A stretch of 64,000 nt of DNA. Source: an uncultured bacterium (GTDB lineage Bacteria > Patescibacteriota > Minisyncoccia > UBA6257 > 2-01-FULL-56-20). Where the stretch lies: contig CAVOJZ010000002.1 of NCBI GenBank assembly GCA_963696395.1, positions 134,433-198,432 of the forward strand, given 5' to 3'. The translations under genes and the position numbers were made by a program. Below, piece by piece: positions 3,173 through 64,000 of the stretch (its first letter is position 1; every line of letters starts with the position of its first letter). The notes beneath the pieces were generated by a model. It made no database searches, was not told the DNA's origin, and saw nothing but the letters and a program-made list of their open reading frames with translations.

Positions 3173-3437
3173 TACTATACCGACCAAATTGGCCTGTCAA
3201 TACCCTCTTCTATATGGCCATTTGGGCTGGACTTTTTAATCAAGCCGCGCCATCATTGATGGTACAACTGAATATCAGATAGAGACCTAACCCCGTCAAG
3301 CTTTTCAAGGCTTTTCGGGCATGGTCGCAAACACGCAACGAGCATAAAGATCCCATCATCAGGATCGCTCGTTGCGTCGCGCGGGGAAACTCGTGCGGGA
3401 GCCTAAAAAACTCCGCCTGGTGGTGGGTTTTTTGTAA

Positions 3438-3467
3438 CTCGCCGCCGGAAAGGTCGGCGAGTTTTTT
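3438..3467 (+). terminator. Intrinsic terminator: hairpin CTCGCCG-CCGGAAAGGT-CGGCGAG followed by TTTTTT
   Basis: 7-bp GC-rich stem plus T6 on the plus strand. No plus-strand CDS upstream of it. Confidence 0.5.
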
Positions 3468-3494
3468 AGCATTGAAAAATAAATTAATGAAAAC

Positions 3495-5344: not shown

Positions 5345-5408
5345 GGGGCATTCGATTTCCCCCTGGAACTACCGTACGAATAGCGCCTTGGTTCGATTCC
5401 CCTTAGGG
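5345..5408 (+). repeat. Two degenerate inverted copies of the tRNA-Glu 3' half (T-arm plus acceptor)
   Basis: 5345-5370 GGGGCATTCGATTTCCCCCTGGAACT and 5386-5408 CCTTGGTTCGATTCCCCTTAGGG. Compare the real tRNA 3' part GGGGGTTCGATTCCCCCTGGAGCTA on the opposite strand. Confidence 0.4.
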
Positions 5409-5450
5409 ATATGCGACGCAAAGGTGTGGTTTTATGCGGACTAAAACGTG

Positions 5451-5522
5451 TAGCTCCAGGGGGAATCGAACCCCCATTTGCGCCGTGAGAGGGCGCCGTC
5501 CTAGCCATTAGACGATGAAGCC
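5451..5522 (-). tRNA. tRNA-Glu (anticodon CUC)
   Basis: Hand-folded cloverleaf. Acceptor GGCTTCA/TGGAGCT (two G-U pairs), D-arm GTCT/GGAC, anticodon stem GCGCC/GGCGC, anticodon loop CTCTCAC, T-arm GGGGG-TTCGATT-CCCCC. 72 nt. Confidence 0.85.
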
Positions 5523-10431: not shown

Positions 10432-10465
10432 TTCGTGGAGATTGTAGCAAAAAGCCACGAGAATA

Positions 10466-10593
10466 CAAAAAGGCCTGATTGTAAAAATGTTTTGAGGGGC
10501 ATCTCGGAGCCGCGAAGGCGGCGAGAGGTGAGGTGCGCGACGAGCACGTCGCGACACCGTTCCCGAAAAATATTTTTACAATCAGGCCTTTTT
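10466..10593. repeat. tRNA-adjacent structured element, copy A
   Basis: 27-bp perfect outer inverted repeat encloses the identical core CTCGGAGCCGCGAAGGCGGCGAGAG. A second 7-bp hairpin has an AGCA loop (CGCGACG-AGCA-CGTCGCG). Homologous to the copy at 15618-15742. Confidence 0.5.
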
Positions 10594-10599
10594 GATTTT

Positions 10600-10965
10600 C
10601 TATTGAATTTCCACTTCTGCGCCTGCGGCAACGAGTTTGGCTTTGATCTCGTCCGCCTCTTCCTTCTTCACGTTTTCTTTCACGGTCTTCGGTGCGCCAT
10701 CGACGAGGTCTTTGGCTTCCTTGAGGCCGAGGGTCGTCACTTCGCGGACGACCTTGATCACGTTGAGTTTGCTTGCTCCACCGGATTTCAAAACGACATT
10801 GAAGCTTGTCTTTTCTTCCGCGGCAGCCGCTCCGGCTCCGCCGCCCGCAGCCACCGGCGCTGCAGCCGAGATGCCGAACTTCTCTTCAAGCTTGTGGACG
10901 AGCTCCGCGAGCTCAACCACGGTGAGCGATTCAACCTTGGTGATGATGTCTTCTAAATTTGCCAT
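10600..10965 (-). CDS. rplL: 50S ribosomal protein L7/L12
   Basis: Full-length similarity, including Ala-rich hinge and C-terminal [14 protein letters not shown]...[20 protein letters not shown]. Confidence 0.95.
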
Positions 10966-15561: not shown

Positions 15562-15617
15562 ACTTTACCGCTCCACTATAGTATAAGACGAAAATACTTA
15601 TGTAAATAAGGTTCTAC

Positions 15618-15742
15618 AGAAAAGCCTGTGGCTACATGTTTTCCGAGGGACTCTCGGAGCCGCGAAGGCGGCGAGAGTGAGACGCGTTCCGAGCACGGAA
15701 CGACGTCGTGCCCGAGGAAAACATGTAGCCACAGGCTTTTCT
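15618..15742. repeat. tRNA-adjacent structured element, copy B
   Basis: 27-bp perfect outer inverted repeat (AGAAAAGCCTGTGGCTACATGTTTTCC / GGAAAACATGTAGCCACAGGCTTTTCT). Same CTCGGAGCCGCGAAGGCGGCGAGAG core. Second hairpin CGTTCCG-AGCA-CGGAACG. Confidence 0.5.
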
Positions 15743-15832
15743 GGCATTCCCTTTTTATATTTTTTCAACTATACTCTAATGGAAATTTAATGTTCTGCAT
15801 CCTCGCTTGCGGGGGTTAACACACGAACACCT

Positions 15833-30144: not shown

Positions 30145-30268
30145 TGGTGGACTCAGCGAGAATCGGACTCGCGCCTCCGCAATGCGAATGCGGACACAGC
30201 TCTCAATTTCGTTTACCTTATTGTGGACTCAGCGAGAATCGGACTCGCGCCTCCGCAATGCGAATGCG
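30145..30268. repeat. Two identical 47-bp direct repeats separated by a 30-bp unique segment (hairpin-repeat family 2)
   Basis: GTGGACTCAGCGAGAATCGGACTCGCGCCTCCGCAATGCGAATGCGG at 30145-30191 and 30222-30268. Each contains two hairpins (GCGAG-AATCGGA-CTCGC and CCGCA-ATGCGAA-TGCGG). Confidence 0.6.
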
Positions 30269-30532
30269 GCGTAATACCACTTTACTATGAGCCCAGCTTC
30301 TGAGGCTAATAGTAAACGAAATTGAGAGCGTTTTAAACTGCTTATCGCGCGCCTTCGGCGCGACCCACTTTAATATGAGCCCGAGCGAGGAAAGAATATG
30401 CGCGTTGCGCGTATATTCTTTACGAGCGAGGGAGGCATATGGCCGAAGGCCATATGAGCCCGAGCATCAATGGCGCCAGCCATATGAGCCCGAGCGAGTT
30501 TCAGAATAACACCTCTCGCGCGACCTTTCAAA

Positions 30533-35184: not shown

Positions 35185-35269
35185 TTATCCTATTTTAGCA
35201 TGAAACGAAAGAGTCTCCTTGTCGCCGGAAGCGAATTGAAAATGAAAACATAGCTTGGTGTGGGCAGAG

Positions 35270-35342
35270 TGCCCCCACCAGGATTCGAACCTGGGACCGT
35301 CTCCTTAAAAGGGAGCTGCTCTACCAACTGAGCTATAGGGGC
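35270..35342 (-). tRNA. tRNA-Lys (anticodon UUU)
   Basis: GCCCCTA acceptor, anticodon loop CTTTTAA, T-arm CCAGG-TTCGAAT-CCTGG. 73 nt. Flanked by 13-bp inverted repeat GTGTGGGCAGAGT / ACTCTGCCCACAC. Confidence 0.9.
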
Positions 35343-35417
35343 ACTCTGCCCACACTTCTTCAAACTATGCTTTCATTTTCAATGAGCGACCCAGCGGGCG
35401 AAATTCTGATTTCGCCA

Positions 35418-63866: not shown

Positions 63867-63938
63867 GCCCTCGTAGCTCAACGGATAGAGCTATTCCGTC
63901 CTAAGGAAGAGATGGGGGTTCAATTCCCTCCGGGGGCA
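63867..63938 (+). tRNA. tRNA-Arg (anticodon CCU)
   Basis: GCCCTCG acceptor (one G-U pair), D-arm GCTC/GAGC, anticodon loop GTCCTAA, T-arm GGGGG-TTCAATT-CCCTC. 72 nt. Confidence 0.85.
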
Positions 63939-64000
63939 CTAACAGATTTCCTTTCTCCTTTTCAGGGACGTGTCTCGGCCTGCTGGCCGAGCACTCTCTC

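Follow-up and report, generated by a model that had tools for sequence, protein, structure and literature searches.

A 64,000-nt stretch of DNA from an uncultured Patescibacteriota bacterium (contig CAVOJZ010000002.1, positions 134,433 to 198,432; the whole stretch is hereafter the window) carries three copies of a palindromic repeat, one of them cut by the window end. The repeat belongs to an apparently undescribed family of ~120-base elements in Paceibacterota, each of which has a conserved branched tip on a long stem that looks self-copied and specific to its site. With strict polarity, the elements stand behind the ends of genes, and this combination of features is unusual. Sequence comparison documents the family, its structure, polarity, and gene context, its presence or absence among relatives, and a duplicative origin of the stem arms. 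Our favored reading, to which we give a probability of roughly 45%, is that the element is a transcribed palindromic repeat of the REP or Correia kind that serves as a 3′-end or intercistronic hairpin of highly expressed transcripts, with a stem made by inverted duplication and kept by conversion.

A conserved branched tip on site-specific stems

The first-pass annotation of the window had reported two elements (copies A and B) with an identical 25-nt core. We found the 25-mer CTCGGAGCCGCGAAGGCGGCGAGAG at exactly two places, 10503-10527 and 15653-15677, both on the + strand, and shuffles indicate that none is expected. Both copies fold into the same architecture. An outer stem of 28 positions is followed by a GA/GA internal loop and a short GGG/CCC stem, which leads into a three-way junction. 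From this junction extend the two hairpins that had been annotated, hairpin 1 (loop GAAG) and hairpin 2 (loop AGCA). The minimum free energy (MFE) was -79.1 kcal/mol for copy A (z -11.4) and -93.2 kcal/mol for copy B (z -14.1), and the reverse strands were also very stable (-65.5 and -87.9 kcal/mol, respectively). We likewise confirmed that the hairpin 2 stems differ yet pair perfectly (CGCGACG/CGTCGCG in copy A vs. CGTTCCG/CGGAACG in copy B). The outer stem, described as 27 perfect base pairs, is indeed a long paired stem, but it spans 28 positions, all 28 of them Watson-Crick in copy B and 27 in copy A, where the remaining pair is G:T.

To find relatives, we scanned one genome per species with the 20-mer GGAGCCGCGAAGGCGGCGAG, which returned 92 loci. 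About two-thirds of them held the whole palindromic architecture, and all of these lay in metagenome-assembled genomes (MAGs) labeled Paceibacterota, Parcubacteria, Minisyncoccia, or “Patescibacteria.” The loci named below with an L number are 8-kb pieces around these exact 20-mer matches, a sampling that is biased to one hairpin 1 subtype. Matches in Devosia, Haloarcula, Planctomycetota, and others lacked the palindrome and were dismissed as chance in G+C-rich coding DNA. The one match among viral contigs, a 19-nt hairpin 1 core in G+C-rich DNA, was likewise judged not to be an element. We then built a covariance model on 63 copies and searched it against the 8-kb loci and the window, as the first-pass annotation had recommended for related genomes. 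This gave 83 matches below E = 1e-10, including copies without the exact 20-mer, and the ~80 matches at ≥45 bits came from 24 species-level Paceibacterota, Parcubacteria, or Minisyncoccia genomes, all within the candidate phyla radiation (CPR). One genome of ~0.8 Mb contains at least 10 copies, a lower bound counted in the 8-kb pieces only.

The annotation had recognized no known RNA family, and Rfam 15 agreed: at gathering thresholds, no family matched at the copy A or copy B locus. Relaxing the search to E ≤ 10 brought only chance matches, the best overlapping one being Methylosinus-1 at 13.9 bits vs. a threshold of 145. In the literature on Parcubacteria and Patescibacteria repeats, hairpins, and RNA motifs, we found no description of the element.

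Across the family, elements measure 94-155 nt (median 121), with a mean MFE of about -74 to -79 kcal/mol. The outer stems, 16-48 bp long (median 27.5), are near-perfect and unique in sequence to each site; the arms are unrelated between copies even inside one genome, so there are no common terminal inverted repeats. Accordingly, the stem ends AAAAGCCTG...CAGGCTTTT that had been called conserved are common to copies A and B but not family-wide. Candidate conserved termini (CAG...CTG and AAAAGCC) were also considered and rejected as not general. By contrast with the stems, the 60-75-nt tip is conserved and consists of a short basal stem, hairpin 1, and hairpin 2 joined in the three-way junction.

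The annotation's central claim, a conserved structured element, was borne out by many homologues with compensatory changes in every helix. Copies with broken helices had been named as what would speak against it; instead, 96.8% of cells held standard pairs in the 83-copy model-fitted alignment, vs. 66% in column shuffles and 38-47% when the structures were slid by 1-3 columns. Changes on both sides affected 30 of 34 pairs in this alignment, which was itself fitted to the structure, and an independent MAFFT/RNAalifold run detected compensatory changes in 27 of the 34. In hairpin 2, compensatory changes touch eight of nine pairs, such that structure is conserved and sequence is free. Hairpin 1 covaries too in copies without the exact 20-mer, with GCCGC/GCGGC replaced by GGCAC/GTGCC, GGCGC/GCGCC, or GCAAC/GTTGC, and its loop is GNAG across the family. 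The conserved unpaired bases are the GGA/GA loop of hairpin 1, the bulged A and AGNA loop of hairpin 2, and a few junction purines. The tandem GA under the basal stem is Watson-Crick GA/TC in other copies. Two reduced copies (L073 and the second copy in L015) lack hairpin 2 altogether. Comparison of the tip by eye with K-turn, loop E, hammerhead, and tRNA-like motifs gave no fit.

Two further observations concern the tip. In two different genomes (L072, 3758-3888; L053, 6372-6500), an inserted palindrome of ~25 nt, CCGCGACTCTTAGGAGTCCCGCGG or closely similar, is nested within hairpin 2 and splits it. Separately, the invariant GGAG of hairpin 1 (GGAGG in some subtypes; 10506-10510 in the window) is Shine-Dalgarno-like on the GAAG strand, and the strand that would be co-transcribed with the upstream gene reads CUCC or CCUCC there, which is anti-Shine-Dalgarno-like.

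Copies in the window

We corrected the limits of copies A and B, and the model added a third copy (C), detected next to tRNA-Arg(CCU). The features are as follows:

10466-10594, + strand (the strand bearing the GAAG loop): copy A, whole element; 105.9 bits with the covariance model; 5 nt past the rplL stop (rplL on the - strand)
10466-10493, + strand: 5′ outer arm of copy A, 28 nt; pairs with 10567-10594
10494-10499, + strand: GA of the tandem G.A internal loop (10494-10495), opposite GA at 10565-10566, then GGGG of the basal stem (10496-10499), which pairs with TCCC at 10561-10564
10500-10530, + strand: hairpin 1 of copy A, comprising a basal stem, GGA/GA internal loop, GCCGC/GCGGC stem, and GAAG loop; includes the 25-mer
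10532-10558, + strand: hairpin 2 of copy A, comprising a GGTG/CACC base, bulged A, CGCGACG/CGTCGCG stem, and AGCA loop
10567-10594, + strand: 3′ outer arm of copy A, the gene-proximal arm, beside the rplL stop at 10600-10602
10448-10461, - strand: possible remnant, displaced to the downstream side of copy A, of the 3′ half of an older plain terminator (CTCGTGGCTTTTTG), tentatively suggested by comparison with L093
15617-15743, + strand: copy B, whole element; 97.9 bits; in the spacer between divergent tRNA-Thr(UGU) (- strand) and dnaE (+ strand)
15617-15644 and 15716-15743, + strand: outer arms of copy B, with hairpin 1 at ~15651-15677 and hairpin 2 at ~15681-15707
15573-15616, no strand assigned: flank of copy B, inverted-similar to 15744-15790; also holds the promoter-like site of tRNA-Thr
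15744-15790, no strand assigned: flank on the other side of copy B; decayed counterpart, in inverted form, of 15573-15616
63942-64000, - strand: copy C, cut by the window end; 20.3 bits (hairpin 2 only); orientation opposite to copies A and B

Copy C begins 2-3 nt past tRNA-Arg(CCU) (63867-63939, + strand) and comprises the gene-proximal arm, the basal stem, hairpin 2, and the start of hairpin 1.

Elements follow gene ends with strict polarity

The annotation had placed the element 5′ of tRNA genes. Copies A and B do adjoin tRNA 5′ ends, at distances of 34 nt (tRNA-Val) and 55 nt (tRNA-Thr), but the family as a whole sits at the 3′ ends of genes, tRNAs, and 23S rRNA. When we checked whether every copy is tRNA-adjacent, most turned out to follow protein genes. 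Gene calls here were simple open reading frame (ORF) heuristics, with ten proteins checked against Pfam. On the 3′ side of the GAAG strand, 28 of 78 copies have an ORF of ≥150 aa that ends at the stem base, vs. a single copy on the 5′ side, with the same criterion (an end from 6 nt before the stem to 22 nt inside it) on both sides. The 3′ ends of tRNAs (Glu, Ile, Tyr, and Arg) lie at -19 to +2 nt of the stem on the same 3′ side, and the stem of several copies begins exactly at the tRNA 3′ end. Six copies adjoin the 3′ end of 23S rRNA on this side as well, the 23S end being approximated from a motif.

The proteins encoded upstream, identified with Pfam, are EF-G, LepA, EF-Tu, SecY, S9, S6, S18, GreA, GroEL, and a PilB-like ATPase. 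L7/L12 is also upstream of the element in the window, L115, and L054, and other upstream proteins resemble DnaB, FtsH, and Hsp20, as judged by eye from sequence. Because the abutting genes are tuf, fusA, secY, ribosomal protein genes, and the like, the element sits at the ends of highly expressed genes and operons.

Relative to its upstream gene, the element would thus normally be read as the reverse complement of the GAAG strand, and copy A, if within the rplL transcript, would be read in this way. We considered whether the polarity stems from replication rather than from neighboring genes. GC skew stays negative from one end of the window to the other, but copy C points the opposite way to copies A and B, so polarity tracks the neighboring gene and not the replichore; a replication-strand cause was rejected on these grounds.

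On the far side of the element, the next same-strand gene can start at 13-28 nt, and in L054 tRNA-Val starts at -1 nt. Such spacing leaves no room for a promoter, which implies that at least those copies are transcribed through as intercistronic spacers. A run of ≥4 T at the stem edge was present in 10 of 77 copies on the + strand and 11 of 77 on the - strand. These few T-runs indicate that most copies are not canonical intrinsic terminators, though copy A, flanked by A5/T5 tracts that place T5 at the stem base on both strands, could be one. Four loci (L025, L048, L076, and L086) have elements between convergent tRNAs.

Some individual arrangements stood apart. Behind the 23S rRNA 3′ end, two opposite-orientation copies lie ~45 nt apart in both L018 (680-785 and 830-952) and L015 (6769-6866 and 6909-7016), and one of the pair in L015 is the copy without hairpin 2. 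In L007 (~800-1210), the fusA frame appears open through the whole element with no in-frame stop, for which a lost stop, a frameshift, or an assembly error are possible explanations.

Stems appear to be built and maintained by local copying

Several lines of sequence evidence indicate that each stem arose on the spot, by inverted duplication of the sequence that flanks the tip. In L115, a perfect 40-bp palindrome begins in the last two codons of rplL and includes the stop, and the last codons of the upstream gene also lie within stems for tuf, LepA, and others. In L082, the distal arm repeats the 3′ end of tRNA-Tyr in inverted and decayed form. Among tuf copies of three species, the distal flank keeps ~35 nt of tuf coding sequence in inverted form at ~70% identity, while the stem is nearly perfect. 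A perfect stem beside a decayed coding copy means that something keeps the stem intact, whether ongoing conversion, selection, or both. Family-wide, inverted similarity outside the stem exceeded the 99% level of permuted controls in 7 of 77 copies, 3 of which are explained by convergent tRNAs. The palindrome of copy B also runs past its perfect stem, at ~80% complementarity (inverted score 15, reached by 2 of 500 shuffles).

Changes among orthologous copies (tuf, fusA, 23S, rpsF, and pilB) are mostly found on both arms, with pairing kept and indels mirrored. We also asked whether wobble pairs reveal the strand of a selected RNA. A first count of 61 G:U vs. 31 A:C favored the GAAG strand, but this bias was traced to inherited tip features plus a register shift between subtypes, and it was gone in the variable arms (49 G:U vs. 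36 A:C, p = 0.19). With no wobble bias, mirrored indels, and coding sequence in the arms, a copying mechanism can account for perfect pairing without selection on each pair. The arm data therefore fit arm-to-arm template switching, and selection on single RNA base pairs appears to fit them less well. In E. coli, template switching is an established process by which quasipalindromes become perfect (PMC7202029). This bears on the annotation's view that compensatory changes mark a selected structure: all helices do covary, but covariation of the outer stem is not proof of selection, given that the arm evidence points to copying.

Comparison among relatives indicated that elements come and go. A close relative of the window organism is MAG MFD05512.bin.c.3 (OY970126.1), with 79% identity in RplJ, 89% in the N-terminus of DnaE, and the same gene order. 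Its copy B site is empty: the tRNA-Thr/dnaE spacer measures 99 nt vs. 271 nt in the window, without the element or its 28-bp arms and with just one of the two flanks that form the inverted pair. The empty site in L054 aligns to the flanks of copy B both directly and inverted, which is possible because this promoter region is itself AT-rich and quasi-palindromic. In L093, the rplL-tRNA-Val spacer holds a plain terminator in place of the element, and a stretch of the window immediately downstream of copy A resembles the 3′ half of such a terminator, apparently retained.

Turnover can also be followed in OY970358.1, where a newer palindrome with a different tip abuts tuf (L063) and secY (L043). 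Behind it, the distal half of the old element survives (the 3′ half of hairpin 1, the basal stem, and the distal arm), and we take these remnants as evidence for serial replacement at one gene end. The tip AAATGCCACGTAGGAACGTGACC, with inner stem CTTC(C)TTTTTGACG, occurs after rplL in L107 (~3370-3440) and after tuf in L063 (~5596 downwards). Its recurrence at two genes in two organisms shows that other tip families of equal architecture exist, and it is probably a second “hairpin-tip” family. Long palindromes with other tips, starting in the last codons of rplL or tuf, were also seen in L094, L095, and L097, all downstream of rplL; the complex tip in L097 is ~130 nt.

A target-site duplication was not consistent. 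Direct repeats of 4-5 nt were slightly in excess at the borders (8 vs. 2.9 and 4 vs. 0.6 expected) and were present in ~10% of copies.

Elsewhere in the window, tRNA-Glu (5450-5522, - strand) is followed by two decayed inverted copies of its own 3′ end, at 5390-5411 and 5357-5372, without the conserved tip.

Possible functions and alternative explanations

Under our favored reading, the element would be co-transcribed as a 3′ trailer or intercistronic spacer of the upstream gene, and the transcript would fold there into an extremely stable hairpin that marks its end. This hairpin may act as a barrier to 3′ exonucleases, as a processing site for a double-strand RNase of the RNase III type, or as both. 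Where U-tracts flank the element, as in copy A and a minority of others, it could also serve as a bidirectional terminator. The stem would have been created as an inverted duplication of the local flank and its arms held perfect by arm-to-arm template switching (quasipalindrome correction), which would explain why stems differ wholly between copies yet remain paired. We infer transcription, processing, and a benefit to the host in this scheme.

Several points weigh against it. Transcription, strand, and processing are all read from position. Of the two strands, the GAAG strand has the more stable fold in 68 of 78 whole elements, and it is on this strand that the tip's conserved unpaired bases (GGA/GA, tandem GA, and the GNAG and AGNA loops) are purines, features that would fit a functional RNA on the strand opposite to that implied by gene context. 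The strand evidence thus conflicts: gene context and the intercistronic cases imply an RNA of the CUUC-loop strand, but the tip looks “designed” for the GAAG strand. A plain hairpin would be enough for stabilization or processing, so such a function leaves the conserved three-way-junction tip unexplained. Moreover, no upstream gene reads into copy B, which occupies a divergent promoter region, and either of its flanks may be the native one. Finally, the orthologous rplL-tRNA-Val element in L054 has polarity opposite to that of copy A. Both orientations are therefore viable at one site, and a hairpin function, if any, tolerates both, but this tolerance is itself a difficulty, as it leaves the 28:1 bias without a cause.

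Next in standing, though somewhat unlikely, is the possibility that the repeat is a selfish element or mutational by-product. Its tip would spread by copy-choice (template switching between loci) and fold-back copying would make the stem with no gain to the host, leaving copies to persist where they are harmless, i.e., downstream of gene ends. Such an origin would suit the site-specific arms with coding or tRNA sequence (e.g., L082), the differences in presence and absence between relatives, the remnants of older elements left by turnover, the other tip families of the same architecture (AAATGCCACGTAGGAACGTGACC in L107 and L063), the nested small palindrome in hairpin 2 (L053 and L072), the slight excess of 4-5-nt border repeats, and the lack of wobble strand bias in the arms. 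However, a symmetric replicative mechanism does not predict a 28:1 polarity that ignores the replichore. Nor would it readily account for stems that stay perfect while the adjoining inverted coding copy decays, for copies at tuf, fusA, 23S, and rpsF that are kept across species, for the enrichment at the ends of highly expressed operons, or for the compensatory evolution of hairpins 1 and 2.

A broader scenario, which we also regard as doubtful, is that of a transposase-free mobile element. A “hairpin-tip” would spread between gene 3′ ends by copy-choice and fold-back-copy the host gene end into a stem that conversion keeps perfect; rival tip families would displace one another, and the hairpins would have been taken over by CPR bacteria as operon-end punctuation, replacing classical terminators. 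Among the candidates listed in the first-pass annotation, a structured repeat resembling miniature inverted-repeat transposable elements came nearest.

It is considerably less probable that the GAAG strand gives rise to a functional RNA, either protein-binding or a trans-acting small RNA, perhaps freed from the stem by a double-strand RNase as rRNAs are. Conserved unpaired purines are typical of structured RNAs, the tandem G.A and GGA/GA loops are stabilizing on this strand only, the stability advantage of this strand extends to 74 of 78 tips, and tip sequence is kept across species. The tRNA-Lys and tRNA-Ala genes of the window, which lie at the tips of comparable long perfect stems, offer a parallel. 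However, the features behind the stability difference were inherited with the tip, so the copies are not independent observations of a stability gap, and the initial G:U excess vanished from the variable arms. No promoter seems to feed this strand: a sigma-70-like promoter pointing into the element was not enriched, with a 9-of-12 match in 4 of 76 copies, no more than in controls. An RNA from this strand would also be antisense to, and convergent with, the abutting gene in at least 28 copies.

We consider it improbable that the element is an ordinary bidirectional Rho-independent terminator with an elaborate loop. The A5/T5 tracts of copy A, its position at the site of plain terminators after rplL in L093, L099, L101, and L104, and the elements between convergent tRNAs would all suit a terminator. 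The scarcity of T-runs on either strand argues against this for the family at large, as do downstream genes and tRNAs that begin -1 to 28 nt on without promoter room. A terminator scan of the window called neither copy A nor copy B.

A DNA-level site seems very unlikely, be it a cruciform or hairpin that a recombinase or transposase would recognize (in the manner of attC or REP/RAYT) or a signal related to replication. In its favor are the very stable folding of both strands, the absence of RNA-strand bias in the arms, and a hairpin 2 that is conserved in structure and not in sequence, but polarity goes with the transcription of the neighboring gene and not with replication, common terminal sequences and a consistent target duplication are missing, and the neighbors are housekeeping genes and not cassettes. 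Equally improbable is a tRNA leader or processing element, as the annotation had suggested, or a self-cleaving or RNase P-type signal that would define where the upstream RNA ends. Copies A and B do precede tRNAs and several stems start exactly at a tRNA 3′ end, but protein genes precede most copies, where a tRNA adjoins the element it usually comes first, a promoter-like site for tRNA-Thr itself lies between that gene and copy B (15606-15578, - strand), no ribozyme family matched at the copy A and B loci even at E ≤ 10, and no conserved NCCA-like tail followed the stem across copies.

Implications

Paceibacterota and other CPR bacteria are uncultured and have genomes of <1 Mb, and to our knowledge the way in which their transcripts end and are processed is almost wholly unknown. 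A family that stands at the ends of the most highly expressed operons, with 5-10 or more copies per genome, offers a handle on CPR transcript ends. It also calls for caution in covariation-based RNA discovery, as the perfect “compensatory” pairing in long stems here seems to be largely a product of copying and not of selection on RNA pairs. If the tip does spread and seed palindromes by template switching, this would be an unusual mode of propagation for a repeat family.

Other structured loci in the window

Two tRNA genes in the window have surroundings that resemble the element. The tRNA-Lys gene (35269-35342, - strand; region 35235-35383) lies at the tip of a long extended stem (MFE -87.8 kcal/mol, z = -11.7). 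Its acceptor stem runs on directly into a perfect helix of 18 bp, with neither a discriminator base nor a CCA left unpaired. Beyond this comes another helix, of 23 bp, and the two pairs there that are not Watson-Crick are both G:U when read on the tRNA strand. The arrangement is the element's architecture with a tRNA as the tip. The tRNA-Ala(CGC) gene (30223-30294, - strand; region 30160-30329) has perfect 18-bp inverted repeats on either side, at 30199-30216 and 30312-30329, and just downstream of its distal arm is a direct partial duplicate of the anticodon-to-T-arm region (~30160-30198).

Unrelated to the element in sequence, a match to LOOT RNA (Rfam RF03000) was found at 3284-3414 on the + strand, with 65.9 bits vs. 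a gathering threshold of 46.4. Two terminator-like hairpins follow it at ~3407-3470.

Comparison with known systems

In position, the elements resemble the REP and BIME sequences of enterobacteria, which are extragenic palindromes at gene 3′ ends and between cistrons. Their classic role is that of 3′-exonuclease barriers that stabilize the upstream mRNA, as in the malE-malF case. However, REPs are imperfect palindromes of 20-40 nt with a conserved sequence and are mobilized by RAYT transposases, whereas the elements described here reach ~120 nt and have a branched tip and variable stems.

Like Rho-independent terminators, the elements lie directly behind genes and form a stable G+C-containing hairpin, with flanking A/T tracts in the case of copy A. 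They differ in that most copies have no U-tract, the stems are 3-5 times the usual length and reach into coding sequence, and the place of the loop is taken by a conserved 60-75-nt three-way junction.

Integron attC sites are also imperfect palindromes just downstream of ORFs in a fixed orientation, recognized by structure rather than sequence and possibly with a variable branched tip. The pattern of conservation is the reverse, as attC base boxes are conserved and the tip is variable, but here the base is variable and the tip conserved. The neighbors differ as well, being housekeeping and stable RNA genes here (tuf, fusA, secY, rplL, tRNAs, and 23S).

Quasipalindrome template-switch mutagenesis explains perfect arms, mirrored indels, and inverted flank copies without selection on each pair (PMC7202029). 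Still, it is known as a mutational process at single loci and not as the stem builder of a dispersed repeat family.

Finally, there is a likeness to the Correia elements (CREE) of Neisseria and the enterobacterial ERIC sequences, palindromic MITE-like repeats which are 100-150 bp long and have many dispersed intergenic copies per genome. CREE and ERIC are co-transcribed with their neighbors, and their long hairpins can be cut or bound by RNase III, which affects mRNA fate; Correia elements demonstrate that transcribed palindromic repeats can be RNase III substrates (PMC2649163). By contrast, the arms of CREE are terminal inverted repeats conserved in all copies, with duplication of a TA target, whereas here the arms are unique to each site, the tip is conserved, no consistent target duplication is found, and polarity relative to the upstream gene is strict. 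Overall, the element would appear to function most like Correia, ERIC, and REP sequences, but it fails to share the conserved arms that define them.

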